A DNA stretch of 64,000 nt, from NCBI GenBank assembly GCA_965153355.1, contig OZ231126.1:21576001-21640000 (forward strand), in the 5' to 3' direction. This document shows, piece after piece, positions 16,418-61,676 of this stretch. The notes beneath the pieces were generated by a model. That model had not been told where the DNA came from. It worked only from the letters and a program-made list of their open reading frames with translations, and made no database searches. This DNA comes from Flaccisagitta enflata. Lineage: Eukaryota. Numbering within the stretch: the first letter of the stretch is position 1; every line of letters begins with the position of its first letter. The position numbers and the translations under genes are program-made.

Positions 16418-19283
16418 ATGCGCCTTCAATTAATCGTCCCATTGGTTTTCTTCTGCGCCTTGGCTTCGAGGTAGGTACTTATTGGTTTGTTTAGTTTAAA
16501 GTGCAATGAAACCCATGAGCGCGAGCACTGTCTCTGCAGAAATTGTTCCTCGATTACCGATCTATACATTAATAGACATTCATATCCAAGAAATATAAAT
16601 AAAACAAACTGAAACGCTTCTTTCTTCTTTGAAGAGTCGATTCCAGAGGCGTTCAAGAGGAAGCGAAGGCGATTCAGAATGAAGAAAAAGTAAGGGGGCG
16701 TCTCGCACGCACCGCAGGTTCGCTATTTTACGTAATTGATGGTAGTCTTTAGAACATAAACGTAAAGTTTTTTTTCCTTTTTCGGCGTTTTTGAGCTTTT
16801 TTAGCTCACTGCTCCTGCCCAAATGCCCTGGTGACCTTTTTAACTGGGGTAGCCGGGCATCCGGCCTTGTTATAATTCAATTTTACCAGGTTCATTGGTA
16901 ACCTTTGGTACAGGTGGATACGGTTGGAACCCAGGACCTCTAGATAGCCTTGGCGCAAGTGCACCAGGAAAGAAGAAGAAACGTATGGAAGGTGAGCTCA
17001 AACTATCTAGAAGATTTGTATTATTTAGGATATGATTTCCCCTGATATCCTGAAAAACTGAAACATTCTTGTTTTGAGATGTGCTAATTGACCTTTAAAG
17101 GCTTTATCAAATCTATGGAGGCAAACTGATGCAATTTTTACAATTTTACTGGGTTAATTGGTATCATTTGGTATAGAATTGTTTTGAAAGAAAATTTAGC
17201 ATTCTAAGAAGTAATCATCAATTATTGCAGATGACGATGGTGCACCTGGTTGGAACCCAGGACCCCTGGATAGTCTTGGCGGAGGAGTCTTAGGGAAGAA
17301 GATGAAACATATGGAAGGTGAGTTCATATCTAGGAGTTAAGTATTATTTAGGGTATAACTTCCCCTATATATCTCAGAAAACAGCAGCATTCTTATTTTG
17401 AGCTGTGCTGAAAGTCCTTCATCATATCTATGGAAACAAACTGAAGCAATTTTTACAATTTAAGTGGGTTAATTGGTATCATTTGGTAAAGAATTATTTT
17501 TATAAAAAATGTAGCATTCTAAGAAGTAATCATCAATTTTTGCAGATGACGACGGTGCACCTGGTTGGAACCCAGGACCCCTGGACAGTCTTGGCGGAGG
17601 AGTCTTAGGAAAGAAGATGAAACATATGAAAGGTGCGTTCATATCTAGGAGTTAAGTGTTATTTAGGATAAAACTTCCCCTTATATCTCAGAAAACTGAA
17701 GCATTCTTATTTTGAGCTGTGCTATTTGACCTTTATCAAATCTATGGAAGCAATTTTTACAATTTTTACAATTTTTACAATTTTTACAATTTTTACAATT
17801 TTTACAATTTAACTGGGTTAATTAGTATCATTTGGTATAGAATTGTTTTGAGAGAAAATTTAGCATTCTAAGAAGTAATCAGCAATTATTGCAGATGACG
17901 ACGGTGCACCTGGTTGGAATCCAGGACCCCTGGATAGTCTTGGCGGAGGAGTCTTAGGGAAGGCGATGAAACATATGGAAGGTGAGTTCATATGACATAT
18001 CTAGGAGTTAAGTATTATTTAGGGTATAACTCCTCCTATATATCTCAGAAAACTAAAGCATTTTTATTTTGAGCTTTGCTGATTGGCCTTCATCATATCT
18101 ATGGAAACAAACTGAAGCAATTTTTACAATTTAAGTGGATTAATTGGTATCATTTGGTAAAGAATTGTTTTGATAAAAAACATAGCATTCTAAGAAGTAA
18201 TCATCAATTATTGCAGATGACAACGGTGCACCTGGTTGGAATCCAGGACCCCTGGATAGTCTTGGCGGAGGAGTCTTAGGAAAGAAGATGAAACATATGA
18301 AAGGTGCGTTCATATCTAGGAGTTAAGTATTATTTAGGGTATAACTTCCGCTTCCCCTTATATCTCAGAAAACTGAAGCATTCTTATTTTGAGCTGTGCT
18401 ATTTGACCTGTATAAAATCTTTGGAAGCAAACTGATGCAATTTTTACAATTTCACTGGGTTAATTGGTACCATTTGGTATAGAATTGATTTGAGAGAAAA
18501 TTTAGCATTCAAAGCAGTAACCATCAATTTTTGCAGATGACGATAGTGCACCTGGTTGGAACCCAGGACCCCTGGATAGTCTTGGCGGAGGAGTCTTAGG
18601 GAAGAAGATGAAACATATGGAAGGTGAGTTCATATCTAGGAGTTAAGTATCATTTAGGGTATAACTTCTCCTATATATCTCAGAAAACTAAAGCATTCTT
18701 ATTTTGAGCCGTGCTGATTGGCCTTCATCATATCTATGGAAACAAACTGAAGCAATTTTTACAATTTAAGTGGGTTAATTGGTATCATTTGGTAAAGAAT
18801 TGTTTTATAAAAAATGTAGCATTCTAAGAAGTAATCATCAATTATTGCAGATGACGATGGTGCACCAGGTTGGAACCCAGGACCCCTGGATAGTCTTGGC
18901 GGAGGAGTCTTAGGGAAGAAGATGAAACATATGAAAGGTGCTTTCATATCTAGGAGTTAAGTATTATTTAGGGTATAACTTCCCCTTATATCTCAGAAAA
19001 CTGAAGCATTCTTATTTTGAGCTTTGCTGATTGGCCTTCATCATATCTATGGAAACAAACTAAAGCTATTTTTACAATTCAACTGGGTCAATTGGTATCA
19101 TTTGATACAGGTTTGTTTTGAAATTTTTTTTGGCATTCTAAGAAGTAATTATGAATTGTTGCAGATGACAACGATGCACCTGGTTGGAACCCAGGACCCC
19201 TGGATAGTCTTGGCGGAGGTGTACTAGGGAAGAAAATGAAACGTATGGGGACGATTTCAGCGAGAGGCTCACACGTCATATAA
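16418..19283 (+). CDS. Secreted multi-copy neuropeptide precursor (pedal peptide/orcokinin-B-like), 10 exons, 292 aa
   Basis: Exons 16418-16470, 16635-16717, 16890-16991, 17231-17317, 17546-17632, 17895-17981, 18217-18303, 18537-18623, 18851-18937, 19165-19283. All introns are GT-AG with compatible phases; 879 nt open through to TAA. Protein: MRLQLIVPLVFFCALASRVDS (signal-peptide-like) RGVQEEAKAIQNEEKVRGRLARTAGSLVTFGTGGYGWNPGPLDSLGASAPGKKKKRME, then 7 copies of DD(D/N)(G/S/D)APGWNPGPLDSLGGGVLGK(K/A)MK(H/R)M, ending GTISARGSHVI*. Gly-Lys-Lys is the classic amidation/cleavage signal. AATAAA lies at 19422. Confidence 0.88.
16890..19250 (+). repeat. Tandem array of ~315-350 bp exon+intron units (8 units) with alternating A/B intron types
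   Basis: Near-identical units of the form ttgcag|ATGACGATGGTGCACCTGGTTGGAACCCAGG...ATGGAAG|gtgagt. The repeat exons start at 17231, 17546, 17895, 18217, 18537, 18851 and 19165; a diverged first unit starts at 16890. Confidence 0.95.
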
Positions 19284-19421
19284 CCAAGACCAACGCAAGG
19301 TTGGCAGGGCAATTTAGGTACATGAGGGACTTGCAATCGGTATCATTGCTATCAAATGTTCGGGGAGGTAAAATTGCTTGAAATTAGGCCGGTAAAAACG
19401 GGCAGATATTCTCTTATCACT

Positions 19422-19427
19422 AATAAA
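19422..19427 (+). promoter_or_regulatory. Putative polyadenylation signal of the neuropeptide precursor gene
   Basis: AATAAA about 140 nt downstream of the TAA stop at 19281-19283. Confidence 0.55.
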
Positions 19428-21056
19428 CGTGTCCACCAAAGGGGGCTTTCGCCCTTTTTTTTCCTGTAACAAATTGTAACAGTTGTTAATTATCAGTTTT
19501 CTTGAGGCCCAATGAGTTGTTTTCGCGACCTTTGATATTCATTGTGGCCTTTTGGTCACATTTGATTGAAATTGTCCCGCTGGAAACCTTAACTATCCGG
19601 ATTTGGACTTTTTTCGCATCTGAAAGTGACAAAGGAAAATAACGCAATTTCGGACAAATTTGAAGGGTATGGCAAATAATATCAATTTCATCCTTTTTTT
19701 AAGTGAGAGAGCGGGCAAATTTGGGTTCGGGTAAGCCCCCATTTCACATGGAAGACAGTAAAAAAAAAATTGCGCGAAAAAATTCGAAGACGGAATAGTT
19801 ATGATGAAATCTTGAATTTCGGACAACTACGGTTTTTCTACATTTTAATTGTCCCACCCGCGTTCACTTAACATAACTGACATATATCTTTCAGAAAAAG
19901 TGTTTACTTTAACAGCAACGACCCTGCACTTGTTGGCCCAAACTAGTAAATTGTTATTGAGATGAATTTGGCTAGGTTCGATCGAGTTTTCACACTCAAA
20001 GGGGAGGAGGTTGAATTTCGGACAACTACGGTTTTTCTACAATTTTCACGCGAACCGCCAAATTCTGTTTTTGTCCACGTCGGTAATGATATCTCGTGAA
20101 CGCCTCAACCGATTCTCATGAAATTTTGTATAGAGACTCACCAAAGCTTAACCTAATACACGCGAATGAATAGAACAAAATATATTCATCTTGTCTAGCC
20201 CAAATGGCCCAGAAATGGCCCAAATTTGGCCCAAAAATGAAAAAAATTGCAACTACTCGGGTGTTTCTCATCTGATTTAGTTGAAACTTTGCGTGGGGTC
20301 TCTCAATGATAAATCTTAATGTGTGCGTTCAATTTTTGAAAATATGAGTAATCAGACCGGCCACTACTGGCCAGTACTGGCCAGAAACTGGCCAAAATTG
20401 GCCCGAAAATGATGAAAAATGGATTTTCTCAGGCAGTCTTTGCGCAACTTTGATCAAAAATGGTGAAAAATCTTAGAAAAATGGAATCTAACAAATGCAC
20501 ACTATTCATAAGGATTTTAGTCATGCAGATCGCCCCAACAGGCCAAGAACGGTTAAAAATTAAGCCAAATATGATAAAAAGTGTAACTGCTTCCGCAATC
20601 TGATTTCGATTTTGATGAAACTTGGTTTGAAGTCTCACAAAGGTCAAACTTATCACTCCATACTTGTTTAAAAAAACTTGAGTAACTCAGACCAAGGAAA
20701 AAAAAACTGTTATTTTGGCTGTTACTGACCAGTAATGAAGTGCAGCACTTGCATGATATGTTTGAAAACGCGATAAAAAATCACAACCAGCCTATGATAT
20801 CAGCGCTAATTATCTTTTTTTGTGAATTCTGACAGATCTCAAATTTTTCCTAAGAAATGATTGTGATGCGCTCGTTAGTACAGGATTATCAACAAAGATA
20901 CAAAATATTTGTATCAACATTCACATAGACGGCGGAGAATTAATCATAACACAGAAGCGACAAGGGGCGATCGAGGCTCTTTACAGAGTTGGCATTTTTT
21001 AGGGGGGGGGGAGAGAAAGCCGGCATCATATTTAAAACTCTCCGGGGACATTATTT

Positions 21057-23969
21057 TCAAAATAGGTACTCCGCAACAAGAGAAGGAAGGTCACTGTCAT
21101 GAATGTCTAAAACAGTATGTTTCTTCCCAGATATGGTGACAGCTTTTTGTTCAAAGGCAAGTGGTGGTGAGCGAACTATGTCTGCGTCGAAAGAAAGTAA
21201 CTTGGCGCCGGTTGAGGTAAAATAAGTTGGGCTTCCCTGAACTTTGGTCAAAATTTTCCCTTTGAGCAGTTCGTTGGTGCGATGTTCCGTGATGAGAATG
21301 AAGTTAAGCTCTTGCCTTTGGCCCCGCGTAATCGCTATGACTGAACCAGGTTGAGCCAAGTCTGCCATCTCATTGCGATGTCGCCCTTGACTCTGTCTAG
21401 TCTTTGAGGCAGCTTTTGCATTGGCAACAGAGCCAGAGGGACGACGTTGAACTTTTACCAGCGTAAGTGGACCCAGATCCTCTGTACGCCGACACTCAAC
21501 GAAATTGCCAAATTCACATGCGGCACAAGAGAAACAGGAGGACTCACGGACAAGAAGCTCACCAGGGACCTTGGTTGTATGCAGTTGATGGAGACCCCGT
21601 GAGCCTACAATCGGGTCCCAATCAGTCTGTGGCGCACTGACGTCAGCAGCTCTCACAACCTCACCATGGAGCGCACTGTAGAAAAACCCTTTGCTGTCCT
21701 CTCGTCCTTTGCGTGTCCTTTGCAGGTCAATGAAGTTGAGAGTCTCAATATGAGCAGCAACATTGGTGATGTTCCGAAGAGGACGGTTGAACCGCTCTTC
21801 TTTGTGCAATTCCGTCTTCCACAGAGCACCATCATGATCATGCTCTCCCTTTCCATGACCTGCGCAGGTAAAGTGAAGAGAAACCTGAGGACAGTTTGGG
21901 CACAGTGGCTCTGCAGTTTGGTGTTGTAGGCACAGATTTCGCCGAGTTTCTGCCAATGATCCGAAGACCTTCCTCGAACAGAACTGTTCCGCGCATTTGT
22001 CAGATCCAAGGATAAGTCGAGAGAATTTGAGACTAAATTGTTCCTGGATCCAGAGGACGATGCGACGAAAACAGAAGGCAGCCATGTGACGATCTTGATC
22101 TGGTCGCTCAGAGAAGAAGCCGAAATAGACTTTAACTTTCTTTAGGTTGCCCGTCTCAGGATCGATAGCAAGAAAATAGGCCACTGTTGTGAAAAGAGTT
22201 ATCAGTTTGCTATGCCAGTGTATCGACTGCACTTCCTCGAACTCCTTCAAGGCATATTTTTCGGCATAGTCGCTGAGAAGGACAAGGGTTTCAGGATCGA
22301 TGTTGATAAGGAGTTTGTCAAATTCTTTCTTTTGGTTTTCGGCAACCCATCGATGCAGAGCAAAACCGCTTAGTTTGTCTTTGAGATGAGACGCGAACTC
22401 CGCCGGCGAAGCTTCTTTCTCTTGAACTCCAAGTCGTCCAGATTCATCTTTTTCAACGGAACGGAATTTGAAAAGAGTTTCTGTGTTCCATTGTTTGGTT
22501 GTTTCATCAATCCGTTTGAGCCCACAGTTTCCACACTTTTCCTTCAGGCATTCCCTCGTTCGCTCATCAGTCGGGCAAAGAAGTGATTCAACGAATTCCA
22601 CATAATGTTCAAATGGAGGCAGGGGAAGGGAGCAGCGTTTGCAGTTGGAGATGGCGTCTTCATATGCGAATTTCACATTGGTGTGTGCCGAGCAAAGACA
22701 GACCTTCAAAATCAAATTTTAAACATTCTCTTAAAAGACTGGCAATTGATGTTTTTGCAGAAATTACTGAGTATGCTTTTGCTCATTTTAATTAATTACA
22801 CACAGCTGATTGCTGGCCGATACTTACTTTTCGATCACTATCCTTTGGTGACACGATCCACTTTGGTCGAAGTGAGGAGAAGAGACCAGTGGAAACATGT
22901 CCGTGCTTCTTGACATACTCCCGATGTAACTTGGTTACGTTGTCTGTCAAGAACCTCCGTTGATGCGTTTCCTTAATGCCATTGTTCTGTGAGAATGAGG
23001 ACTCATTCTTAGCAAACCCTTGAGTCATGGTCACGCGACCATTTACGATACTGCATCCATCAGTGAGTGTCACATCTTAAGTAATGTGCTATGCAACTAC
23101 ACCCCACTTTGTCCGTTTGTAGGTCGGTTGGTCATAATTCTTTTTATTCGCGTGCACGCGACTCTACAACCTGCTTTGTCGGTTGGTCGGGCACACTTCA
23201 CTTTTTTTTTTTATCACTTTTATTTTTTAGGTCATTTTTGGTCATTCTAAGTAATTTTAAGGCATTCTAAGCAATTCTAAGTCATTTCAAGTCACTTAAG
23301 TCATTTTTGGTCATTTTTGGTCATTTTGTCATCTTAAGTCCTTTTTGGTCATTTGAAGTCATTCTAAGTCATTCTCAGGCATTCTAAGTCATTAATAGTC
23401 ATTAATAGTCATTTCAAGTCTGTAAGTCTCGCACGCGACTTAAAGGTGTTGGCCTTGTTTATTTTTTTTTCCCGGTTTTGGCCTCACTGCTCCTGCCCAA
23501 ATCTCATGTTTCTGATCTGTGTAAGCTCAATGGCCGAACATTTTGTAATTATTAAAGCTCACCTGGACATTCACGACGTCTCGTCGTCGAGAAGTAGGCA
23601 TTGAGTTTTCTTCATAAAACTTTCGAATGAGGTCGCGTTTTTCAAAGAACTTCGTCGTTTTTCTTTTCCTACTCAATGCATTGGAGACGGCATTTGAAGT
23701 CGGAGAAATTCCGTTATCGTCGGCAATCGCTTTAGCTTCTTTAATAGCGCGACGTGCATCAGACACCATGTGCTCGCTTATTCCAAAGAGACTGTGTATT
23801 TCTCTTCGGGTAAGCGGATCGGGACCTTCCACCATAGTTTCCGCGATGAGACGTCGAAAGGCGCGCTCTTCTTTTCGCATGGTTCCTTTACCTAACCACA
23901 AGGATTTCCGGAAAAAATCATGTGTCAAGAAATGAGACCACCTTTCACTCGGCTTCTCTGCCTCTGTAC

Positions 23970-24048
<79 letters not shown>

Positions 24049-25746
24049 TTTATTCTCTCTCTCTCTCTGGTTTTATTTTCCCCTTACCCACCCCTTGTCT
24101 TGGACGATGAAGTAATACCACGGTTTTCAGGTGCGCCAGGGCACCTCTGAGGCTTTGTCCGTTGGTCGGTGGGTTGGTCTGTCTGTTGGTTGGTAGGTCT
24201 GTCTGTTGGTTGGTAAAGTATTTGTTGGACGATCCACGTGCGGCACATACTGGCCTTGTTCAATGTTCATTTCAAAAGCTTACCAAGATTCTTATCCAGA
24301 CGCGCTCTCAACTTTGAAATCGCTTTAAGGGCGAGTTGAAATTGCTGCTGCTGCTGCTGGTCTATCCTCATTTCCTCCTCTTCTTTCTTCTTAGTTTGAC
24401 GATGCAAAGCTACTCTTTCGCGCACTCTTTTTCTACCTTCTTCTTCCTCCTCTGCCACACTCTCCTCACTTTTACGAATGTTATCTCTATATTCCCTCTT
24501 CCGGAGTCTCTCTTTCTTCCGCCTTCCATTTCCCCCAATTGCTTCCCTTTCTCTTTTCCTTTTTGGCCCTGGCCGTTTCTTTGGTGTTGAAAGAAACGGC
24601 GCCGATTCGGATGAAGAGGCGCGACTTGAAGAGGGAGAGGAAGCACGAGAGGTTGATGGGGTTGAGAGAGGAGACACGGTCACTGAAGAGCAAGGAGAGG
24701 ATGAACGACGACGTTTTGTTGCAAACGTCGAGAGGGCTGAGTCTGGCTTTGGCGTCACATCATCGGTGGGACGAACTGCGCGATTTTCTGCCTCCTTTGA
24801 CGGAGACATCAACAAGACGCTGCTGTTACGTTTGGTACTCTGTAAAAGAAGGTTGGGAAGAAAGTGTTAACGTTTATAGTCGAGTCGCAACAACGCGACT
24901 CCACCCCGCTGTCGGTTGGTCGGTCTGTCCCCATTTCACTTTTTCAGCGTTTTTTTTTGCTCCTGCCCACCCGCACGCAATTGGGGTAGCCGTGAACACG
25001 GCCATATTATTATCACTGAATATTTTTTAGTCGCGGACACGCAACTCTACCATGCCGTTTCGGTCAGTCTGTTGGTCGGTCCGTAATATTTTTGAATTGC
25101 TGCGATTTTTGTACTATACTACGGCCCCTGCCCAACCGTCCGCGACTATTTTGCTGTTATCCGGCCAATTTCATTTATCCATTTGATTCTTTCAAATTAT
25201 GCTCTACAATTTTTTTCCCGTATTTTCCTCCACCCTTACATTAAGCCTTACGTTTGATTCTCACTCCTTGCTTTGTCCTTGTCTTACCCGAGAAGGCGTT
25301 CTCAAGATGGGTTGGACGCCCAGCTCGTCGGGAATATCCTCGGCGGCGTCAGAATTGTCTTCAGCCCCGATTGGAATTCTGTTGTCGGCGTTGGCAGAAT
25401 TCTCAGTCACTACCCTTGCTTTGAGAAAAGGCAGAGCTAATGACAGTTTCTTAGATTTCTCCTTGCTACGACGGTGTTGCTCGAGACGCTTTTCCTCGGA
25501 TTCGTCAACTCCCTTTTTACGCGGCCTTCCTCTCTCTCTCTTTTCCTCCACATTCCGCCTTTCATTTTCCTCTCTCCACTTGTTCAGTTTCTTCTCCTCC
25601 CCTTCGTCAACTCCTTCCCGCCATTCGGGACCTGGCTTCTTCTTCTCCTCTCCGCTCTTTCGCCTTTCATAGCTTTCTCTCTTCTGCTGTCTCCTTCTCT
25701 CCTCTTTCTCACTCTCACTTAGTGCCCTTGGGCGCCCGGGTGGCAT
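21057..25746 (-). CDS. Sola2-like DDD transposase (possibly domesticated), 5 exons, 1049 aa
   Basis: Exons 25746-25288, 24839-24284, 23891-23563, 22986-22828 and 22703-21057 join in frame with GT-AG introns (3150 nt, ending TGA). Motifs: FSSLRPKW...RKVCLCSAHTN, ECLKEKCGNCG, SDYAEKY...EEVQSIHW, GSDKCAEQF, AGHGKGEHDHDG, GSRGLHQ...SCFSCAAC. From memory these match the Sola2 transposase pattern (DF.ENY..Q.E.QS.HW / SDG..Q / HGKG..DG). The N-terminus is basic and low-complexity with AT-hook-like PGRPR and RGRPRK motifs. Confidence 0.85.
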
Positions 25747-27110
25747 GTCTATCGATCGAGCTAACTGGTGGAAGCTTAATGTTTCACCTAAAATACGGAA
25801 CATATTGGGCGAAGCTATCAATTTAACGAGCAGAGTGGATAACTACTTAACTTTTGAATAACAAATGTGATGATTCAGTAGAGAATAAATCGGTAAATAA
25901 ATCGGTAAATAACTAAGAAGACGCGAGTTTGACTGGTTACTAACGGCGTTGCCCTATGAAATAATGCATCTTAACCATAGAATATGTGTAATACGAAGGA
26001 AAACAAACTGTGCACTATCCAATCAAAAGAGGCAATCCACACTTAGAAATAGAATCTTTTATCGGGTTCTGGCGCAGCAACAACATAACTTGTACGAGAA
26101 TTTGGAAAAACAAGGCCAAGCAAGCCAATAGGCGCGCCGGGCAGATCGTCAAGTTGGCGTGACCCACTAACCAATGGTAACGACCGGATATAGAGGCGCG
26201 TTAGAGTACCTCAAACACAATGGTTTCAATTAAATTGTTTACTAATTAAATTGTTTACATAAACAATGTTGTTCAATGGGACGCGGACAGAAAAATAGAA
26301 TTCCATCTGTAGGTAACAGTTGACAAAAGAGCATTGATATGCGCTGACAAAAGAGCAATGGAATTGTGATTTTAGTGGGTTTTACATTACAAACGCCAAG
26401 ACACATAAGATGTTTAGCTTCACAGTACTAGATTTCAAGAGCAATGGGGAAAATACTGTTCATCTTTAGTCATATTCGAATGGAAAAGACCGCAGAGCTC
26501 AACTTCGGCTGATTTGTATATGATGGTTAATTTGGGCTCTCCCGGTCAAACCGAAGCCCATTAAGGAATACTAATTATGGTTTCCTACCTCTCAAACATT
26601 ATATTATCACCTCAATTAATAAAAAAGTGACATTTCCCACTTCTAAAATTATGAGTTTTGCAGCTGAGGCGGTGAGCCTGTTGCTGAAATCGTCCAAAAA
26701 CGCTAAAAATCCATTTTCTTATAAAATGAAAAGCGCTAAAAATCCATGTTCTTATAAAATGAAAAGCGTGTACAATTTAACAGGCGCAACAACTAATGAC
26801 TTGCAGTTGCGGGGCCGCCTGCTCAGGATAAAAATAGTACAACGCCGTGTTTTCCCACTTCTGGTAGCGAATCTGTCAAGATATGTTTAAGATCGGGTCT
26901 TAATTTACTTTCAGCTTATATTTCAGTAGAGATGTTGGATTGTCTAGACCATGTTAAAAAATCTGTGTATGATGAATTCATTTATTGACTGAATAACTGA
27001 CCGGCTGACTGAAAGCCTTTAGTGCACAAAGAAATTTGAAAGAATCATAAAAACAAAAAATCTGTCTGTCTCTGTCTGTTTCTCCGTCTCAGTCCATTAG
27101 CCAGGCTAGC

Positions 27111-27198
<88 letters not shown>

Positions 27199-27633
27199 AC
27201 GTGCGCGTACATGGATACATGGACGGATGCACTCAAGCATGTAAGCGCAATCGCAAGCTCTTTCTCTCCTTCAAATCATTGCGATTTAATGTTAACATTT
27301 TTCGGAGAAATTTCTCAACATAGATGGAGATATGTAACAACACCTGCGTCTTAGCACTGGACTATGACCAGCTCAATCGCTTCTAACGAAAAAGGCAGCT
27401 TTACAAAAAGTGCGAAGATTCTAATTGTGCGAGATTCTAATTGTCGTCCAAACGCTGCCAAATGAGAAAATGTTTCATAAACATTCAAAGGTCGGATTTT
27501 TAAGGTTTCAGGTTAGGGTGGTCGGATATATGAGACAAAATAAGTCACAATACTTTCTTTTCTTTCTTGGTACATTAAGGGAAGAAGACCTATGCGGCTG
27601 TGCAATTGACAGTGTAAACACACGCACGCAATC

Positions 27634-27673
<40 letters not shown>

Positions 27674-28147
27674 CCACTAACTAACGACCATCGGGGGAAA
27701 ACATGAGCTCCATAACCCATATCCGTCCACGCACGCCCACAGTTATGCCGATGGTCGTGCATTTGACAACTGTGGCCGCTTCTGACCCTCGACTGTGTTC
27801 TCGGTGACCTCGGCATCGGTCCAAGACGACCTTTGACCTCTTTTTAGGTCACGGCTTGAGACCCGCGGACGACATCTTAGGGACGCCGAGGAAAAACAGA
27901 ACTTGCATTTGACTGTAAGATGCCTATGCGGATATGTGTGGGGCACTTGCACACATGGGATGCTTTGGAATATGTGCAGTGTGCACACGAGCCGCTTCAG
28001 ATTAATCAATACTTCTTTAAATGATGAACAATAAGCCGTTGACATAAGATGTGTATCCCTATACCTCTCTATTTTGACCATCAGATCACGAATCTTTTTG
28101 CATATTGACAAACCTAGGCACAAACGGTTATGCCGTACAGTTATCAG

Positions 28148-28332
28148 TTTTTTTAGTCGCGTGCTACGCGAATCTACATCCCGCTATGTCGGTCAGTCAA
28201 TTCGTCACACTTTTCTTTTCGGCGATTATGGGATTTTCGCCTTTACTGCTCCTGCCCAAATGCTCCACTGACCTCAATTATGGCCCCTGCCCACCCACAC
28301 GCGACTGGGGTAGCCGTTTATCCGGCCTTGTT
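28148..28332 (+). mobile_element. HINE family 1 copy
   Basis: ttttagtcgcgtgctacgcga...cacgcgactggggtagccgtttatccggccttgtt. Confidence 0.7.
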
Positions 28333-28411
28333 ATTAACTATAATGGCAAAAAGAAAGTAAAGAAAGAAAAACAAGTTCGTGACAACAACGTTGCGTGCGA
28401 TTGTTTTGAAC

Positions 28412-28579
28412 AACAAGGCCGGATACACGGCCACCAGTTGCGGACGGGTGGGCAGAGGCGGAAATGCGCGTTTTCCCACTTTTCAACTCAAGCGTGACGC
28501 ACCACCGGACCAACGGACCAACGGACCGACGGACCGACGGACAAAGCCTCTTATAGAGTTGCATGTCCGCAACTAAAAA
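28412..28579 (-). mobile_element. HINE family 1-related copy (reverse orientation)
   Basis: aacaaggccggatacacggc...(GGAC)n...gagttgcatgtccgcaactaaaa; near-identical to 55380-55533. Confidence 0.7.
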
Positions 28580-30662
28580 GTTGCAAAGGAAACGCAGCTG
28601 ACACAACGGGCAAAAGTTAAACAATCCCCTCCAAATTTACAATGAAATAAGCAAGAATCTGTCAAACCCAAATCGTAGTCTTTCAAGATGATTTCGCTAA
28701 CCCTGAAAGAGCCTAAATATTGAAAACAAGTAACGCGGGGTCACAATATCTTTGCGGACGGGTTGGCAAAATAATGCTTGATAAAAGGCTACCCAATTCA
28801 TGTACAAGTAGGCAGAGGTAGTGACATTGGCTAAAAAGAATTGGGGCATGAGAGTGACATTAAAATCACTTGTAAACGTGAAAAAAACAGTCTCACTGAT
28901 CAATAGACCAACAGTTAGACTGATGTATAGACGGATTAATGGGCGGCAAGACCAACAGATGGTCAGACCGCGTAACGTAGTGGGTTACAGAGTTGCATGC
29001 ACACAACTTGAAAAACTGAATATTTTTGCTCTACTGTTTTTGTGAGCCTCATGATACTGCCAGCTTACAATGGTAATTTTTCACCTCTCTCAAAATAGAT
29101 ATAAAATGATTTTTAAGAAACCAGAAATCTTCACATGGTAACTTTTAATACCATCATTATTTGACACATTTACATAAAAGAAATGCTGTATTTGTTGATT
29201 GTTTTACATTTGAGGAGTTGACTGTGGACGAAATTCATTTTAGTCACTCTTAACTTGTGAACTAGGTTTTATTTTTATGATTTTACTAGAAATATCCAAT
29301 CCATTGTGTTCGAAACATGGGGTAAGATTTGAGAGAGCCAGCCGGGGTCAGAGCCAGCAAAACATGAGAGCCCGACAGCAAAATAGAAAGCCATGGGCTC
29401 GCGAGCTCGCGCTAAAACAAGGTCATTAGACCTAAGTCGCGTGCGTCGGCACTTTCAGAAAAGTCAGGCAGACAGATAGATGATCAGACTAAAACATTTA
29501 AAAAAGACCTTTGGACTAACAACAAAATGCCTTTAAAACAACTTTGTGACAAACTAATGGACAGACAGACAGATGGACGGACCAAAAAGGGACTTTTAGA
29601 GGTGTATGAATAACAAAAAAAAAACACATTCAAAAACAGGTAAAATGTCTTTAAATTGGCTGAAACACCCTTTAAACAAATTTGTGATGGCCAGACAGAC
29701 AGACAGACCAACAGACCAACCAAAAAGTGGCGTATAGTGGTTTTTAAATGCCTTAGAAACATTTAGAAACATTTAAAATGTCTTTATTTCGTGTGTAACG
29801 CCTTTTAAATAGTTTTGTGACGGACGGACCGACACTGAATAGAAATTTTTCGTGTCATCCGATCATCTTCATGTTTTATGGAGATGTTATCTAACCCAAC
29901 TTCACCTAAAATTTGAGCTCACTGCGACAAATAGTTGCGAAGATATTAACGCTCAAAGTTTTCTGGTTAGAGAAAAATCAGCTAGATTTGCTTTTTGGCC
30001 ATATTTGGGCTTGCATAAAGCTTTCTTTTTTTCTTTCATGTACCACATTTTTTGCTGAAGTTACTCAGGTTCAAGCATATATTCATAATCCTAAATTTCA
30101 GACCTGTCTGTTAAGCCGTCTTTGATTTATGATGGTTCAAAGTTTGAAAAAATGCCAATTTTTCGGCATCCATCAGATCAAGTCAAAACATGGGAAAATA
30201 TGTGTTTTAGAAGCTTTTAGTGTATGTGTCCGTGTTTGGAAGGGTGGGATGTTGGGTCTGGATGGGGGTTAGCCACCCCTGCGCACCCATATTGTGACCC
30301 CGCTTCACTTGTTCTTTTGAATGCCCATTTTGTGCCCATCCTAATGCTCATGATACCCTTGCCATTAATTCAATGAATTATGATAATCTTTTATTTTTGG
30401 TCTCCCACAATTGAAGAGGTATGGTATATCTAAGTTGAGAAGTTCAGATCGTTCCATGTTCATGCAATTGTGTTAACAAATTAGATACTGATGTCTATCA
30501 TGAATTGGTAGACCACTGCGGCCATAGGATGCAGGGTAAGAGGTGTCTCTTGTTTTTTGTTAAAATGTTAGTTCCTACAATGTCCGTTAGAAGCAGGACC
30601 AATAAGAGAGCAACTAACAAAAGGCAAACCAAGCGTTTCAACACGCAGCAAAAATTGGAAAA

Positions 30663-43065: not shown

Positions 43066-44698
43066 TTTGATGGCGAATCTAGATGTGAGTCTTTCGACAT
43101 CAGATTCAAATTTCGTGAAAAAGGTTTCAATGAAATTGGTAGCGTCTCTTGATTTTGATGATAAGCTCTTTTTAAGAAAAAGGATCAGTTACGAAATCAT
43201 TTTTAGTCGCATGCTTCGTTACTCCGCAACCCGCTGTGTCCATCCGTCCATCCATTGGTCGGTCAGTCGGTCGGTTGGCCCGTCACACTACTACCTTTTT
43301 TATGTTTTTTTTTACTACCTCACTGCTCCTGCACAAACGGTCTAGTGACGCCAAATATGGTCCTTGCCCAACCGCACGCGAATGGGGTAGCCGTGTATCC
43401 GGCCTTGTTGAAACGGAAAGAGTATCAATTCAGATATTGGAATATTAATGAGTATACGGAACTAAAAAGTCTGAACCAGGACCACTGGCTTATCGTCTTT
43501 CTTTTCTGGAACAGTGAAAAAGAATATGAATGTGTCCTCGAAAGACAAGTTGACTAAATTTTTAATTTTGGCAGTAATCCCCGCAAGGCTGATGACCGAA
43601 AATCCTCACGACCGTCTACTTCATCAAATACTAAAACTCACAAGCTGGGCTCCACAGCCAACTCTGAAATCTACCATTCAAGATTTATTTACCACGTCTT
43701 GGGAGGAAATTTATCTTGGCGTCTTGGCATTTGCTGTGCTCAATTTAAGTTCAACCAAAATACCTGCTTCTTTGTATAAACCCTATACGTAGAAGCGACA
43801 AAATCATTGCACGCTTATAACTATGATCAATCCTGTATCATATTGTTTAGCAACTAGACACCTAATAACACCAATTGTTGAGAGGGCAGTGCTAAAACGG
43901 TGCCTGCTTCATTTTAGGTGGTAGGTAACAGTACGAATCCCTAATATTGGACATTTTGTAAGTATTTCCTGGTATGTTAAACAAGAGTCAATAAATTTTG
44001 CTCTTTTTTAGTTGCTTCTTGTTTACTTTACCACCTCTTAACCATTAGCTTGCGACACCCAGGTATCAGTTTTTACATAACTTTGGCTTGAATTTTGAAA
44101 ATCTTCATCTTTGAAAAATCGATCAAAATTTATGGGCAAATTTGAAAAAAAACCACTAATCTTCAGCTTTTTAGTCGTGAAATCCGCATCTGAACATCTA
44201 TCTTTACATAGACTTTTAGCATGTTAAATAGGTCTTTCCGGTATTTTGCAGTGATATGCATGGGGGGTGTTTTCACTGTTTTACTGTACTTGTCTTAATA
44301 ACTGCTGGACAGACGTTACCTAGAAGAAATGGGTACCGTTGAGCTCTCAATAATTTTGTGGTTTCTTTTCCTTTAGGCTGAAGCAATATGACAAAGTATC
44401 TAGTGGTTACCAGTCACCACTAATAAGTTAAAGTCACAAAATATTATTAAAACAAATACCACAGAGATCGAAGCTTAGGACTCCTTATCATTCATATCAA
44501 ACTTCTTGAACTCATCAATGTCAAAGTGACATTTCGTTTTAGTCGCGTACTACACTATGTCTATTGGATTGTTAGTCCGTCATTTTGTCGATCTGTCTTT
44601 CCAACCCTGTTCAATACATTTGCGTTTAAGAACTTTCCGCCTCTCTCTTCAAGTCCACCAATACTTGACTAGGGTAGTCATGTAACAGGCCTTGTTCC

Positions 44699-53822: not shown

Positions 53823-55741
53823 CAGAGGTGTCACTAACCTATCAACTGGTTGATTAATCGGGTCGATTTTTAGCGTTTCAGAATAATCTTCCTGAGTCAC
53901 CAAAACTCAAATGTACCGGGTCAATTTTTTGTCTTTTTCTCTGGCTAGCGTAGATTCGCTCTGACGATGAGACTGATTTAAATTTGCGTTAGAAGTAAGC
54001 ATTAAGCTCGTAAAATAGAATTCTTGTAATATGGAATATTAATAAAGGGCAAAATTGTTCATAAAATGCATTGCATAAGTATACATAGATGTCAGAGAGG
54101 GATTTTGATGGATATAAGTGAAGAGAATCATGATAGTATCGTTATGTTTTGATATTCCTTTGTACATTTGATTGGCAATGTTTTCCCATTGTGTCTACTG
54201 ATTAATTGATGATTCTCTGCCCAAATGAGTATCAATTTGCAAATGCTCTGAAACTGTCTCTCTTTCTGTGTAGACAGATTCGGGGGCTCTGATGCGTGTG
54301 CTATTCAATCCGGGCCGCCTACTTAAACACAGTTGAACCTTGCTCTAACGGAGCTGCCACCAACGGAATTCCGCCTTTAACAGATGCAAATTTATGGTCC
54401 TTTCAAGTTAATTTCCTTTATTTTCTTTATTGGCAATAATAGAAATCCGCCTATAACAGAAGAAAATTTTTTGTCCCCTGAAATCCGTTAGAGCGGGGCT
54501 CAACTGTACTAACATCATTTCATCCATATCCCAGATAGTCAGCCAAATGACCTTAAGGAATAGCATAACAAGAGTTCATGCAAAGTCATAGGAAAGTTCT
54601 CTATCAAAGGAATATGACTCAAAATCATGTACACAGATAACCCAAAACAAAAATTTGGTCCTGGGACCTCTAGAAAATACCGCCGCCACCCCCCTCATAT
54701 CTCATAGAAAATGTACAGGAAAATTTTTTTGCCTATATTCTATTATGGGAAAGGGGGTAGGTGGCGGCGCCAATTTATAGGGGTTCCAGGGCTAAATTGT
54801 TTTCATGGACCACCTGTAAACATGATTTTGGGCCATATCCCTCCGATAGAGAACTTTTCTATGACATCGCATTTTTTGTTGTTAGGCTATTAAGGAATGA
54901 ATACATTGATGGAACTTTTGAAAGACTGCATATGCGCTTGAACACTAGGCTGGGCACATTTTGGGCTTTTAAAAAAAAGATTGTCTCCAAGCAATTTTCA
55001 TGTACCATTTGCATAATTAAAGGCTTGTCTACTTACAAAATCAATTTGGACTTGATCTAGTGAGAGCGTCATCAATGCTGTAGTTATATAGAATTGATTG
55101 ATGTGGTTGACTGAGAAATTTCTTCCATAGTAATTCTATACAACTACACCATTGATGACATTCTGACAAGATCAAAGGCAAATTGATTTTGCAAGTAGAT
55201 AGGCCTCTAATTATGCAGATGGAACATGAATATTGCTCGGAGACAATTTTTTTTTCATAGGCCCATTTTGAATCCAGCCTATTGAACACAGAGTAGAAAA
55301 GTATTCTCCGGCTAATTGGGGATTTGATGGGAAATCTTGCAAAATACATGTAAATTAATTTATTGGCCCTTTTTTCTTTTTAGTTGCGGACACGCAACTC
55401 TATCAGAGGCTTTGTCCGCCCATCCATTGGTTGGTTGGTTGGTCCGTCACGCTTGAGTTGAAAAGTGGGAAAACACGCATTTCCGCCCCTGCCCACCCGT
55501 CCCCAACTGCTGACCGTGTATCCAGCCTTGTTTCATTTTATTACATGACTACAAAGTGGATAACTTATTTTGTAATATAGAATGGCTTCTGAAACATGTT
55601 GTTGTGACTGTAAATGATAGTTATCTTTTCTTGGTAAAAGGGCTTACTGTCAAAACAATCGACCTATGGTCGATTATTGGTCGATTTTTTGGGGGGGTCA
55701 ACCCGGTCGATTTTTAAAATCAGTACTTTGTGACACCTCTG
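53823..55741. mobile_element. Non-autonomous hAT-type DNA transposon with nested MITEs and a HINE
   Basis: TIRs CAGAGGTGTCAC...GTGACACCTCTG flanked by a perfect 8-bp TSD, CTTCCTAC (53815-53822 and 55742-55749). Subterminal GGTCGATTTTT motifs. No transposase ORF. Confidence 0.85.
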
Positions 55742-57007
55742 CTTCCTACCTTCTTTCCTTCCCTCCTTCTATTCTTCCTTCCTCACTTCCTTCCTTCCTT
55801 CCTCCCTTCCTTGTTTCCTTCCTCCCTTCCTTGTCTCCTTCCTCCCTTCTATCCCTCTTTCTTTCCTTCCTGCATTCCTTCCTTCAAATCTCTCATTCCT
55901 TACTTTCTATACCTCCATCCCGTCTTTCCCGCTTTCTTTCCTATCTCCCTACCTTTCTCCCTTTCTTCCATTCCTCCCCTCCTTCTTCCTTCCCTCTTTC
56001 TGGCTTTCCTCTATTTCTTCCTTCCTCCTTTTTGGGCAACGGCCCAGCAGGGGCCGATGACCTATACTTTCACACATATGGTAGATTTTCTCCTTCTCCT
56101 TCCCCTCCTCCTCCTCCTCCTCCTCCTCCTCCTCCTCCTCCTCCTCCTCCTCCTCCTCCAAACCCGGCCTCAAGGCCCCAATCATAGCCATAAGGCCCTG
56201 ATTCCAGCCTCAAGGCTCCAATCCCAGCTTCAAGGCTCCAATCCCAGCCTAGAGGCTCTAATCTCTGCAAATGAGGCTCTGATCCCAGCCTAGAGGCTCC
56301 AATACCAGCCTCGAGGCTCCAATCCCAGCCTCAAGGCTCTAATTCCAGCCTCGGGGCGCCAACCCCACCCCAAGGCTCCAACCCCAATCTCGAGGCTTCA
56401 ATTCCAGCGTGGAGGCTCTAGACTTGTTCATCTCCTTCAGCCTGGTTCATCTGCAGATTCTGTGGCCGCACCTTGAGGTTGATAAAGGTACATAAAATAA
56501 CCCACGGACAACATTTAGACACTTATTGGACAACTTGGGGGCATTTCCCGACAACCCTCACAAAACCCTTTTTAAACCTGATACCTAAAACAAAACTTCA
56601 ACTATTGAACACCATATAAATACAAATTGACACCTTAATTCTTTGAACTACACTCTACAGCGTTATTTAGGATGGATATAATTTTTTTGAAAAAATATCT
56701 GCAAACAGCATTGTTATACTGCTCAATTCACAAGTGTAGAGGCGAGTACAAGCCCTTTTGTCCGCGTAATTATTGTTAGTCTTGGACTCTGGGTATTTCA
56801 AATCCCAAAATAATGATGTTTTTCCATGCGGCAGAAAAAAGGTCATTATTTCAGGTCATTATTTCAGGTCTTACAGTGCTGAACAACCTTAGTATTGCAT
56901 CTCACTGAAGAGGTACCGGTTTTAAACGACTGATGTTTTCACCAGAATTCTTATACAGGAAACTCCCATTACAGAAGGAAAAGAGGTTAAAAACTCATTT
57001 TGTAAAA

Positions 57008-57935
57008 AACAAGGCCGGATACACGGCTATCCTAGTCGCGTGCGGGTGGGCAGGAGCAGTGCTGGAGAAGATCACTAGGGCATCTGGGCAAGAGCCGTAT
57101 GCTCAAAAAGCTCAAAAACGCCGAAAAAGTAATAGTCGCAAAAGCGTTAGATGGTCAGCGGTACCCGTTGCCCCTATGTGAGTGTATGATGGTGTGAGGT
57201 AGTTAGAGGGCCAGCGGCCCCGAAGGGGCCGATGACCTATGCTGTTTTTATTTGAGCTTCAAAGCTTGAGGCTGGCATATGAGCCTTGCAGCTGGGATTT
57301 GAGCCTTGGGGCTGGGAATAGAGCCTCGAGCTAATATTTGAGCTTCAAGGCTGGGATTTGAGCTTTGAGGCTAGAATTTGGGCCTCAAGACCACAATTTG
57401 GGCCTCAAGGCTGGGATTTGAGTCTGGAGACTGGGATTTGAGCCTGGTGACTGGGATTTGAGCCTCGTGACTGGGATTTGAGCCTCGTGACTGGGATTTG
57501 AGTCTCATGACTGGGATTTGAGCTTAGAGGCTTGGGTTTGAGCCATGAGGCTGGGATTTGAGCCTCATGGCTGAGATTTGAGCCTCGAGGCAGGATTTGA
57601 GCCTCAGGGCTAGATTTTGGGCCTATTGGCTGGAATTTGGGCCTCAAGGCTAGAATTTGGGCCTCAAGGGTAGAATTTGGATCTCTGGGGTGAAATATAG
57701 GCCTTACAGCTAGAATTTGGGCCTCGGGACTAGAATTTGGGCCTCCAAGCTGGGGGGGGGGTACGGACGGACGTAGGAGGAGGAGAAGGAGAAATTTCTG
57801 CATATGTGAAAGCTTAGGTCATCGGCCCCTTCAGGGCCGCTGCCCAAAAAGGGGACCGACCAACCAACCGACCGACCAACCGATTGACCGACCGACCGAC
57901 AAAGCGGGGTGTAAAGTCGCGTAGCACTTGACTAA
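57008..57935 (-). mobile_element. HINE family 2 (57131-57850) nested inside a HINE family 1 copy
   Basis: The family-1 3' end (57008-57130) and 5' end (57851-57935) are split by a complete reverse family-2 element carrying a (GAGGCTGGGATTTGAGCCT)-like array. Confidence 0.7.
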
Positions 57936-58172: not shown

Positions 58173-58396
58173 TTTTTAGTCGCGTGCTACGCGACTCTAC
58201 ACCCCGCTTTGTCGGTCCGTCGGTCCGTCCGTCGGTCCGTCCGTCGGTCCGTCCGTCCGTCCGTCCGTCACACTTTACTTTTTCGGCGTTCATGGGGTTT
58301 TTGGCTATACCGCTCCTGCCCAAATGCTCCACTGACCTCAAATATGGCCCCTGCCCACCCGCACGCGACTGGGGTAGCCGTGTATCCGGCCATGTT
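58173..58396 (+). mobile_element. HINE/DINE-1-like non-autonomous Helentron, family 1 (reference copy)
   Basis: 5' T-run plus AGTCGCGTG-CTA-CGCGACT hairpin, (GTCC/GTCG)n microsatellite, 3' CACGCGACT subTIR, GCCG-TGTATC-CGGC stem-loop and TGTT end. Related copies at ~530, 1190, 4278, 6770, 14080, 14680, 16780, 23147, 24878, 25025, 28148, 28412, 35945, 40568, 43200, 55380 and 57008. Confidence 0.75.
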
Positions 58397-59203: not shown

Positions 59204-61385
59204 CTATGAGTCGCTAGATTGACTAGATTCGCATCGGAAGCGAGTGCAGAAGTTGACAAAGGCCCTTTTAAAGCTACGAGAAAAAGCGAGATAGATGAAT
59301 AAATTGAAAGTAGAATTGGCCATTATCATGAAATTGGTCAAGATAGCCAAAGTCTTGATTCTTCCTTGATTCTTTAGAAATAGAGAAGTGAAATAATCGA
59401 TGATAAACGGAATTTGACATAAGCAATAAACGATCGCCACGGACGCGACTAAATTCGAAAATTGTTCTATGGATGACGAAGACGAAAAGATGAAATTCCC
59501 GCCACTGTCGTCGTTGTCGTCAACGCCGCGACAACAACGACATCTTCCGGTTTTGTAGAGAATAAACGCCGCCAAAGTCGTCATGACGGCGATGATGACG
59601 CCCAAGTAAACAAGGAGAAATACAGTGGCGCCGATCGCGTGGCCCCGCGTCATCAATTCACGAAAAATGACCCACAACGCCGCCGGCGACAACGCCTAAA
59701 AGCAGCGTCTCGGTCAGAATCCGGTGCGTGGATTTGCGGAGCGAATTTTGAGCGCCACGGAAGCTGGAAACGGCGGCGGCGCGGGCGGCAGTGATAAACA
59801 GCGTCAACCATCGATTGTTGCCTACGACGCCTTAATAGTAAGGACGGGAAGGGAAGATATGCATGGGGTTGGTTCCCATTTCCTTAACGTTAATGTCTGA
59901 TGGATAAATCATTATGATGACAGGAAAAGGGATATTGAATGTCGCATTCAAAAGAAATCGCTTAGTGTTTCCCGATGCCATTATTTCTCATCTACTTAGT
60001 TACTAGACATTGCATCTAGGTTAATGAGGCAGCGGCCCCGGAGACGCCAATAACCTTTGATTACTCTCCGACAAGCTGTAAAATGAGAGGGCTTGCTTGT
60101 GACGTGGGAGGGCGGGCTAAAGGTTTGATTTGAGGCCTGGGAAGTCTGATTGGAAGGTTCAACCGGCTGATAAAGCCCTAGTAGAGCTAACACGAGGCAT
60201 AAGAGGTATCTGAGGCCAGGGAGGGTCAACATAATGCTTTGAGGCCTGGGGGGCTGATTTAAAGCCAAAGAGCTTATCTTAGGCATAAGGGAGCTGATTT
60301 GAGGCATGAGGGCCGAGGGGGCTGACTTGAGGCATAGGAGGGCTATCTTGAGGCCTGAGAGAGCTGGCTCAAGGTTTTTGGGGGGTGATTTGATGTTTGG
60401 CTGAGAATATTTAACATCACGCAAGACCTTGGAAGGCTGATGGGAAGCTTGAGAGCTGATTTTAGGCTTGTGTGATTTTGATAAAGGCTTGGGGCCTTCA
60501 GGGCCTGATTGAAGGTCAAAAAAGACTGGGAATGCTCATTTGAGGCTTGAGAGGGTGTATCTTAAGGCTTGAGGGGCTGGGAGGCCTGTTAGATCCTCTT
60601 TTTGGGCAGCGGCCCCAAAGGGCCGATGTCCTGTAGGACACAGGGGTGAATTTCCAGACGTCCGTCCATACGTCCGTCCGTCTGTCCATCCGTCCCCCCT
60701 CATGTTAATTTGCGGCCTTCAAATTATATGTAAGGGAAAGGCTTGAGGGGGCTAATTTCAGGCCTGAGAGAACTGACTTGAGGCCTGGGAGGTCGGGCTT
60801 GATGACTGAGAGGGATGACTTGAGGCCTGGGGAATGAGTTGAGGTTTGGCTGAGTATATTTATGATCAGGTTGGGCATATTTGGAGTCTGGGAGGGCTGA
60901 TTGGAAGCTTGTGAATTGATTTGAGGTCTTGAAGACCTGGGAGGGCTCATTTAAGGTCAATCTGAGGCTCAATGAATAATCATCATAGATTCTTCTGGTT
61001 TGTCCCACTTGAAAGAGAAAATCCAATTCTTTCTTAGCTTTTAACAAAAATTTTTTTTTATTCATGGTTGGAAAATGGATCAACTCGCTAAAATTGTCTA
61101 AAATCAAATTGATTAAAAACTTTATTGTTACCCCACGTTTCAAAAAGTCGGGTTTTTTCTTCAACATTCCTTTTAGCTACCTGTGAGGGTGTAAAACCAA
61201 CAACGGAATGACGCTGAATCGCCGAATGAATCCGGAAGTAAACTGACGTCACCGAGGGACTGATAAAAGACGCCGAGACTGAGATACACGACACCAACGG
61301 CCAAATCGGAAAAGGCCAAACTCAAAAGGTGAATCTGAGCTTGAGCGCGAGGATTGCGACCTGACGTTACGGGGCGCAATAAACG

Positions 61386-61462
<77 letters not shown>

Positions 61463-61676
61463 GAAATGCCGTGGTGGAGGCGTCTTGTCGACGCGTAAGT
61501 CGCCGTTGATTGAAGATGACGGCGATGATGAGCGAGTTAAAGATGATGGAAGCGGACGCCAAAGTCAACGTTGACGGATGCCCGATCGAAGAAAGGATCT
61601 CCAAGGCTCTTGTCTTGGACGTTGAGTTGGAAGATGATTTGAACATTGTTGAGGCTGTTGACGAGTTGGTCATCAT
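59204..61676 (-). CDS. Rhodopsin-type (peptide-receptor/Srw-like) GPCR, 2 exons, ~373 aa, with a 1-nt frameshift (pseudogene or sequencing error)
   Basis: Exon 1 is 61676-61181 (N-glycosylation sequons NSS/NST, TM1 SIIFNSLIIAVIF, 26-Gln tract, TM2 HLLSLAFSDLAVG). Exon 2 is 59830-59204 (TM3 NNRWLTLFITAARAAAV, TM4, TM5, TM6 VAIVYCLCQIPFII, TM7 ANSTFNLFIYLAFSRSFKRAF). One extra base between ~59698 and 59659 shifts the frame after TM4. Confidence 0.8.

Follow-up and report, generated by a model that had tools for sequence, protein, structure and literature searches.

Sola is reportedly a superfamily of eukaryotic DNA transposons defined by Bao et al. in 2009, with the groups Sola1, Sola2, and Sola3. 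To our knowledge, few eukaryotic cut-and-paste transposons have received less study than Sola-type elements, which have no Pfam model and no solved structure. THAP9, PGBD5, SETMAR/Metnase, and RAG1 are domesticated transposases that have stayed catalytically intact. A passage of PMC10741241 describes Sola elements as 2 to 9 kb long, with a transposase carrying three aspartates (DDD), target site duplications (TSDs) of 4 bp, and terminal inverted repeats (TIRs) of 11 to 1124 bp. Here, we analyzed a 64,000-nt stretch of the Flaccisagitta enflata genome (GCA_965153355.1, contig OZ231126.1, positions 21,576,001 to 21,640,000 of the forward strand), referred to below as the window and used for all coordinates. 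A gene on its minus strand (25746-21057) is best read as coding for the transposase of an intron-bearing family of DDD cut-and-paste transposons, and as a single copy that lacks recognizable ends and has been kept intact, making it a candidate for domestication. We put the probability of this reading at roughly 45%.

Scripted joining of the five exons gives 3150 nt (1049 codons and the terminal stop) whose frame is open throughout, and all four introns run from GT to AG, reproducing the intact spliced protein of 1049 amino acids proposed in the first-pass annotation. Exon 5 (21057-22703, minus strand; 548 codons and the stop at 21059-21057) contains a first zinc cluster, an RNase H-type core, a second zinc cluster, and a C-terminal beta-barrel. 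Its open reading frame (ORF) includes the motifs SDYAEKY (D150), GSDKC (D240), and HGKGEHD (D294), giving a triad spaced D-90-D-54-D. Of 41 aligned family members, all share D240, H288, D294, and K301 and at least 90% share D150; in a close subfamily of 13 members, all three aspartates are invariant. The residues singled out earlier as the putative catalytic triad therefore hold up in both alignments and in their placement on a predicted RNase H-type fold. Likewise, the Cys/His motifs described as zinc binding correspond to two clusters, a Cys4 and a His/Cys cluster, with nine invariant columns in the 41-member alignment (C48, C57, C62, C65, H377, C395, C398, C401, and C409). At the N terminus, for which AT-hook-like motifs were reported, exon 1 has two GRPR motifs and exon 2 a single KRPGPKRKR; Pfam returned no AT-hook match.

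An AlphaFold2 model of the exon-5 ORF, based on an alignment of family members, reached a predicted local distance difference test (pLDDT) of 89.8 and a predicted template modeling (pTM) score of 0.76. The catalytic core (residues 131 to 349; 21672-22328, minus strand) follows the element order beta1-beta2-beta3-alpha-beta4-alpha-beta5-alpha, i.e., that of an RNase H core. D150 (codon 22271-22269) lies on the first strand (144 to 156), D240 (22001-21999) directly follows the fourth (234 to 239), and D294 (21839-21837) opens the helix spanning 292 to 309 after the fifth. The model thus predicts with high confidence that exon 5 encodes an integrase/transposase-type RNase H core with D150, D240, and D294 at the canonical catalytic positions. 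An exhaustive structural aligner ranked Rous sarcoma virus integrase highest (7jn3_A; Z of 9.6, root mean square deviation [rmsd] of 3.3 over 155 residues), with 1asu (Z of 8.9) and 6qbt (Z of 8.8) close behind, followed by IstA (8.5), TnsB (8.0), Mos1 (7.9), Hermes (7.0), and Sleeping Beauty (6.8). Integrase and transposase cores at Z of 8 to 9.6 aligned over 143 to 167 residues with an rmsd of 3.1 to 3.9. Foldseek returned nothing at an E value of ≤0.001 for the exon-5 model (best E, 1.3e-3; the weak matches were all RNase H-like), and a PDB sequence search with the family profile gave chance-like matches throughout (best E, 0.12).

The predicted core is of the same RNase H type as those of retroviral and retrotransposon integrases and of IS21, Tn7, mariner, and hAT transposases (7jn3, 1asu, 8b4h, 8aa5, 4mdb, and 8edg), the acidic residues occupying strand 1, the position after strand 4, and the helix that follows, and with Z of 7 to 9.6 over 132 to 172 residues. 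However, it differs from these cores in sequence (7 to 13% identity and no rve or other Pfam match), in the two Cys/His clusters that flank it, and in the spacing of its triad. Integrases similarly carry a small beta-barrel after the core; here, the layout is zinc cluster, DDD core, and barrel. The C-terminal barrel (residues 447 to 545; 21084-21380, minus strand) was modeled separately (pLDDT of 86.8) and is conserved up to the last residue in the close subfamily. It best matches Tudor, BAH, chromo, and SH3-like barrels at Z of 5 to 6.3. Since none of these matches reaches a Z of ≥8, only a general fold class can be named and no specific reader-domain family.

Judging from alignments to relatives, homologue support covers the first 18 residues of exon 1 and exons 3 to 5. 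Exon 1 (25288-25746, minus strand; 153 codons) has its start ATG at 25746-25744, is basic/acidic in composition, and shares 12 of its first 18 residues with those of the Caligus gene model P0164 (E, 0.002), both sequences aligning from Met1. An upstream in-frame ATG at 25803-25801 would lengthen it by 19 residues. Exon 2 (24284-24839, minus strand; 556 nt) combines Ser-rich with Lys/Arg/Glu-rich low complexity, includes a run of six glutamines, and is predicted solely from its open frame and splice sites. A profile built from the N-terminal regions of 27 relatives left both of these exons undetected in the window, also when filters were off, and the Lys/Arg/Glu-rich N termini of relatives are for this reason taken as a compositional resemblance only. 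Both open frames (199 codons for exon 2) are longer than in shuffled sequence (0 of 500), in a test that is biased by the regions having been cut at ORF ends.

Exon 3 (23563-23891, minus strand) opens the conserved part of the protein; it aligns with homologues P0029, P0115, and P0019, and its sequence looks like a helix-turn-helix. Using phmmer, the alignment to P0029 is contiguous over exons 3 to 5 (45% identity; E, 2e-75), as are those to P0115 and P0019, and Met343 of the gene model (ATG 23879-23877) pairs with Met1 of P0029. The three homologues bridge the junctions between exons 3 and 4 and between exons 4 and 5, the latter also being bridged by P0027. Immediately before the exon 3/4 junction, the window protein has a 4-residue gap relative to P0029. 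Exon 4 (22828-22986, minus strand; 53 codons) is conserved and stops just ahead of a CLC motif. The position of intron 4 (22704-22827; 124 nt) is probably common to close homologues, because the read-through N termini of P0001, P0003, P0004, and P0009 end like a polypyrimidine-AG acceptor right before VCLC.

The first three introns are laden with repeats, as the first-pass annotation had reported along with a (CT)n tract. Intron 1 (24840-25287) contains high-copy pieces resembling a short interspersed nuclear element (SINE), e.g., at 24959-25012, with summed DNA depths of 89,000 to 286,000 in public reads. The (CT)n tract corresponds to (TC)n at 23971-24068 in intron 2 (23892-24283), which also carries GT-rich tandem repeats of 16 to 20 nt at 24156-24215. 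Intron 3 (22987-23562) combines SINE-like pieces with a minisatellite at 23225-23420, made up of about 20 copies of a 10-bp unit, (TTTTAAGTCA)n. Because the minisatellite reaches a depth of 4.1 million in one DNA run of this organism (X1, bin 23138-23504) and of 89,000 in a seawater metagenome (X3), it appears to be a very abundant satellite of the organism.

Several traits place the gene near Sola. Like Sola proteins, it combines a DDD triad with an RNase H-like domain without Pfam similarity in a protein of about 700 to 1050 amino acids, and its family shares the wide but patchy metazoan spread of Sola. In addition, the genome of Caligus, where the subfamily is multicopy, has 482 listed DNA/Sola copies (PMC7878743, Table 6). 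No Pfam transposase family was matched by the five exon ORFs, by 18 distant relatives, or by the 41 aligned members, and Pfam matches of any kind occur in at most 2 of the 41. A passage of PMC5751038 describes Sola catalytic cores as lacking Pfam similarity, and the same passage lists Academ, Kolobok, Zator, Novosib, Dada, and KDZ as likewise lacking a Pfam model. The absence of Pfam similarity is thus compatible with Sola but not diagnostic, as the trait is common to six other superfamilies. Based on these superfamily-level sequence traits (DDD and no Pfam match), the gene probably belongs to the Sola superfamily. The narrower label Sola2, taken from the first-pass annotation, is tentative and somewhat less likely than not. 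A terminal motif common to two bivalve Sola2 consensus sequences matched the window three times, with 6.5 matches expected. A lead to DUF7869, from an ESM Atlas query with P0005 (rank 5, score of 0.94; the other hits being unnamed eukaryotic clusters), was borne out by no Pfam scan. Unlike in Sola elements, TIRs with a 4-bp TSD were not found at this locus. We therefore classify the locus as the transposase gene of a family resembling Sola and not as a complete Sola element.

To assess the copy state of the gene, public reads were aligned to 18000-29000 of the window: DNA runs X1 and X2 and the poly(A) RNA run X5, all from the same organism, and the metagenome X3. Summed contig depth over the exons is 230 to 490 in X1 and 305 to 770 in X2, compared to 246 to 535 and 393 to 805 in neighboring nonrepeat bins, whereas intronic repeats reach 59,000 to 4.1 million. 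In both individuals, exon depth thus resembles that of unique DNA, although summed contig depth is not a copy number and excludes only a high-copy family at ≥90% identity. No second copy lies within the 64-kb window, and no protein at least 90% identical to the exon-5 ORF was among the homologue-search matches. Many near-identical copies bounded by TIRs and TSDs, named in the first-pass annotation as the sign of an ordinary active transposon, are therefore not what these data show.

Contigs that are 3 to 8% diverged from the window differ from it in an apparently frame-preserving way. X2 carries 21% of the gene's exact words. Its contigs show 7 differences in 217 and 9 in 283 positions of exon 5 and 21 in 252 of exon 1, all without gap letters. 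Exon 2 differs at 31 of 521 positions with 6 gap letters, and the 3' flank at 16 of 423 with 10. Pieces across introns 3 and 4 have 20 to 22 differences per 316 to 489 positions and 4 to 6 gap letters, one piece having a GATC insertion at 23513 in intron 3. X3 gives a similar picture, with 10 of 269 and 21 of 350 in exon 5 and 21 of 245 in exon 3 (no gap letters), 25 of 456 with 6 gap letters in exon 2, and 48 of 600 without gap letters over exon 1 and its edges (25254-25853). The X3 flank differs at 26 of 309 positions (2 gap letters), intron 4/exon 4 at 16 of 270 (7 gap letters), and a piece across the stop codon at 39 of 656 (11 gap letters, 3 of them at 21002, outside the ORF). The exon 2 pieces of both runs include 15 to 20 nt of intron 2, and their 6 gap letters are a multiple of three. 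Pieces with noncoding DNA have 2 to 11 gap letters, except for the X3 piece at 25254-25853. Overall, gap letters avoid the exons or number a multiple of three.

Two further observations concern whether these contigs come from one locus. In the flank at 20164-20930, X1 has at about half depth the variants that X2 has fully, as expected of two alleles. Moreover, an X2 contig passes through the SINE-like piece of intron 3 (22681-23163), so this insertion is shared. If the contigs are alleles, the locus predates a 3 to 8% haplotype split, and a neutral 3.1-kb frame would by now hold several disabling changes. This rough estimate assumes that about 4% of substitutions create stops and that one indel arises per 10 to 15 substitutions, as in the noncoding pieces. 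This expectation, set against the gap pattern, is the main, if indirect, argument for selection. Codon and CpG statistics of the gene were uninformative.

No element ends were recognized around the gene. A search for TIRs of 10 to 16 nt (0 to 3 mismatches) with a perfect 4-bp TSD found none between 19300-21056 and 25746-28300, intervals that reach 1.7 kb beyond the gene on its downstream side and 2.5 kb on its upstream side, and shuffled controls gave 0 to 2; decayed TSDs or ends farther out may still be compatible with this result. Masked BLAST and repeat scans of the flanks agreed with this search, in line with the lack of visible TIRs noted in the first-pass annotation. The sole nonrepeat inverted match bracketing the gene pairs 19249-19272 with 26672-26695 (22 of 24 identical; E of 0.01 in a 15-by-15-kb search; score equaled by none of 300 local shuffles). 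This pair was rejected as a TIR, as it has no matching 4-bp flank and the left arm falls within the degenerate final unit of the neighboring tandem array; the right arm adjoins a 33-bp tandem repeat at 26696-26768. The direct repeat seen earlier at 19812 and 20011 is real and measures 35 nt (19812-19846 and 20011-20045; 97% identical). It lies in a stretch with a summed depth of about 11,000 in X1, no inverted partner of it was found, and it probably represents two copies of a small dispersed repeat.

Relatives of the gene were collected to assess the behavior of the family elsewhere. A word-indexed search with exon 5 returned 13 homologues at an E value of ≤0.001, the full-length ones being 47 to 69% identical over 98 to 100% of the ORF, and the closest relative in the protein collections shares 69% identity. 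An exhaustive search extended this to 905 relatives at ≤0.001 and 110 at ≤1e-10, and no longer homologue turned up among 6016 candidates. In Caligus rogercresseyi, one 90% cluster includes four proteins that are 99.7 to 99.8% identical and each encoded on a scaffold of its own (19 to 28 Mb), and a fifth copy on a 21-Mb scaffold is 96.5 to 100% identical (P0005, P0013, P0162, P0163, and P0164 for the five loci). Because near-identical copies occupy five scaffolds, the sequences point to a close subfamily that is demonstrably mobile in this species. One of the five, P0005 (557 amino acids; 54% identical to the exon-5 ORF over 99% of its length), is publicly named "(S)-beta-bisabolene synthase" and is very likely a misannotated transposase.

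More distantly, one relative belongs to a 20-member 90% cluster of mostly sea-urchin records, and every named relative carries the label "uncharacterized"; these come from sea urchin, hemichordate, scallop, gastropod, and moth. A Pfam scan of the 18 distant relatives gave no match for 14, OTU for 2, C2H2 for 1, and a subthreshold match for 1. P0103 and P0152 carry the OTU cysteine-protease domain at the C terminus, and P0032 carries C2H2 fingers at the N terminus. From these sequences, the family appears to acquire accessory domains in transposase fashion. Scans for related loci returned one distant metagenome contig (L001; 24% identity) and none in the genome contigs or viral contigs scanned. 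Within the subfamily, 123 columns are invariant in the eight other full-length members; the window protein differs at 5 of them, in each case conservatively, compared to 0 to 17 for the others, and its terminal branch is 0.23, compared to 0.26 for its sister P0001. At the divergence of the subfamily, neither test separates weak from strong constraint.

Whether the gene is retained by the host or belongs to an ordinary transposon has to be weighed on these data. Retention is favored by differences that seem to preserve the frame, by depth as expected of alleles, and by the missing ends, and it stands barely ahead of a second explanation, which we regard as a real possibility. Here, the gene would be part of an ordinary low-copy autonomous transposon whose short or degenerate ends went unrecognized, left intact by recent transposition or, with the diverged contigs being other copies, by selection for transposition, with no host function. 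Sola TIRs, listed as short as 11 bp in the same passage of PMC10741241, would escape detection in a single copy, and the 24-nt inverted pair does bracket the gene (E of 0.01), but it has no TSD and shares its left arm with the tandem array. Depth in X3 is 4 to 8 over the gene and 1.6 to 2.7 in the near flanks, which would fit a low-copy transposon, while exon depth in the two individuals matches unique DNA. The half-depth X1 variants that recur in X2, the SINE-like insertion shared with the X2 contig, and the modest identity of the closest relative (69%) also argue against a low-copy transposon.

A number of results weigh against host retention, and three favor a low-copy transposon: RNA is missing, substitution levels resemble those of the flanks, and the subfamily is mobile. 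A sample of 12.2 million reads, about 6% of X5, left the gene at depth 0 except for two bins at about 0.1, as would be seen for a silenced element, but X5 is one sample of unstated tissue in which the neighboring peptide-like array is also at zero; the result counts against broad expression and not against any expression. A sequencing-run search with words of the gene gave no RNA run among those listed. Substitution levels of 8.0 to 8.3% in exon 1, 8.6% in exon 3, and 3.2 to 6.0% in exon 5 are not clearly below those of flanks and introns (3.8 to 8.4%), with exons 1 and 3 as diverged from the contigs as the flanks, so that constraint would be weak at best. In addition, the summed depth would still fit a small number of further copies or copies less than 90% identical, the allelic nature of the diverged contigs is itself deduced, and an intact triad, a full set of zinc-binding residues, and a mobile sister lineage are equally expected of an ordinary autonomous transposon. 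The long residence under selection proposed in the first-pass annotation is accordingly supported indirectly by the gap pattern in the diverged contigs, whereas the absence of RNA reads in one run and the mobile subfamily in Caligus speak against it.

Two other explanations fare far worse. That the gene is a currently active multicopy transposon of the F. enflata genome would agree with its intact ORF and the mobility of the family elsewhere, but the exon depth of 230 to 490 contrasts with 10^4 to 10^6 for repeats of the same stretch, and neither a second copy in 64 kb, nor a TIR/TSD pair, nor a protein of ≥90% identity among the matches was found. "Active multicopy" is thus the least likely answer to the initial question of whether the gene is domesticated or active. 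It is also very improbable that it belongs to an old family of host genes whose fold resembles that of integrases and which never derived from a transposon. Such an origin would account for the lack of a Pfam family, for named relatives that are all uncharacterized, and for TIRs being seen for no member here. However, the near-identical copies on five Caligus scaffolds, the 20-member cluster dominated by sea urchins, the variable extra domains (OTU in 2 of 18 and C2H2 in 1 of 18), and the patchy taxonomic spread are typical of mobile elements.

If the gene is indeed a host-retained transposase, its N-terminal region may bind DNA, and the three aspartates would coordinate two metal ions for DNA cutting and joining, as they do in integrases and DDE/D transposases. 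The protein would have no element of its own to move in the F. enflata genome, and its frame would therefore be preserved by selection on the host locus and not by transposition. Judging from other domesticated transposases whose catalytic residues are intact, the protein might be expected to bind or cut DNA and to be expressed in a restricted manner. The candidate resembles THAP9, PGBD5, SETMAR/Metnase, and RAG1 in being apparently single copy and without recognized transposon ends while keeping the full triad and putative DNA-binding parts. It differs from them in that syntenic orthologues, expression, and activity are documented for these four proteins and not for the gene described here. 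The most specific form of the idea, a Sola-type DDD transposase domesticated as a single-copy host gene with its whole integrase-like machinery, from a DNA-binding head through two zinc clusters and the DDD core to a Tudor/SH3-like barrel, and under purifying selection across deeply diverged haplotypes, is unlikely on present evidence.

The surroundings of the gene contain several other features. A tandem array on the plus strand (16922-19283) consists of about seven to eight units of 315 bp, each with a short open stretch ending in ...APGWNPGPLDSLGGGVLGKKMK(H/R)M. Most units have a GTGAGT-like donor after the open stretch, but the final one continues to a stop at 19281-19283. By its sequence, the array looks like a multicopy peptide precursor of repeated mini-exons; X5 has no RNA reads on the part at 18000-19467. 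The array, which is the putative neuropeptide gene of the first-pass annotation, and the transposase gene converge with 1.77 kb from stop to stop, in agreement with the roughly 1.8 kb given earlier. At 28200-28660, an interspersed repeat that resembles a SINE, carries a tail of the (ACGGACCA)n type, and may correspond to the HINE of the first-pass annotation reaches a summed depth of up to 8.5 million in X1 and is the sole part of 18000-29000 with RNA reads in X5 (depth of 76 to 85). SINE-like pieces also occur at 530-575, 16808-16873, 23476-23505, 24959-25012, 43322-43410, 55376-55532, 56996-57054, and 58203-58396. Rfam gave no matches over the window, the SINE-like repeat included. Two open stretches resembling exons of rhodopsin-type receptors were seen by eye on the minus strand (59204-59695 and 61173-61712), with transmembrane-like runs and an NLFIY motif, and one of these receptor-like stretches is broken by a long (CAG)n/polyQ tract.

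A literature search of titles and abstracts returned no report of a domesticated Sola transposase. Within that scope, a domesticated gene at this locus would, if confirmed, be the first described exaptation from the Sola superfamily and could be considered for a DNA-cutting function under host control. As a complete Sola-like member with a confidently predicted structure, the protein would offer a concrete object for biochemistry. Should it prove to be only a stranded transposon copy, it would be ordinary genome content; if the host selects for it, a further superfamily would join the few from which domesticated transposases with intact catalysis have come.

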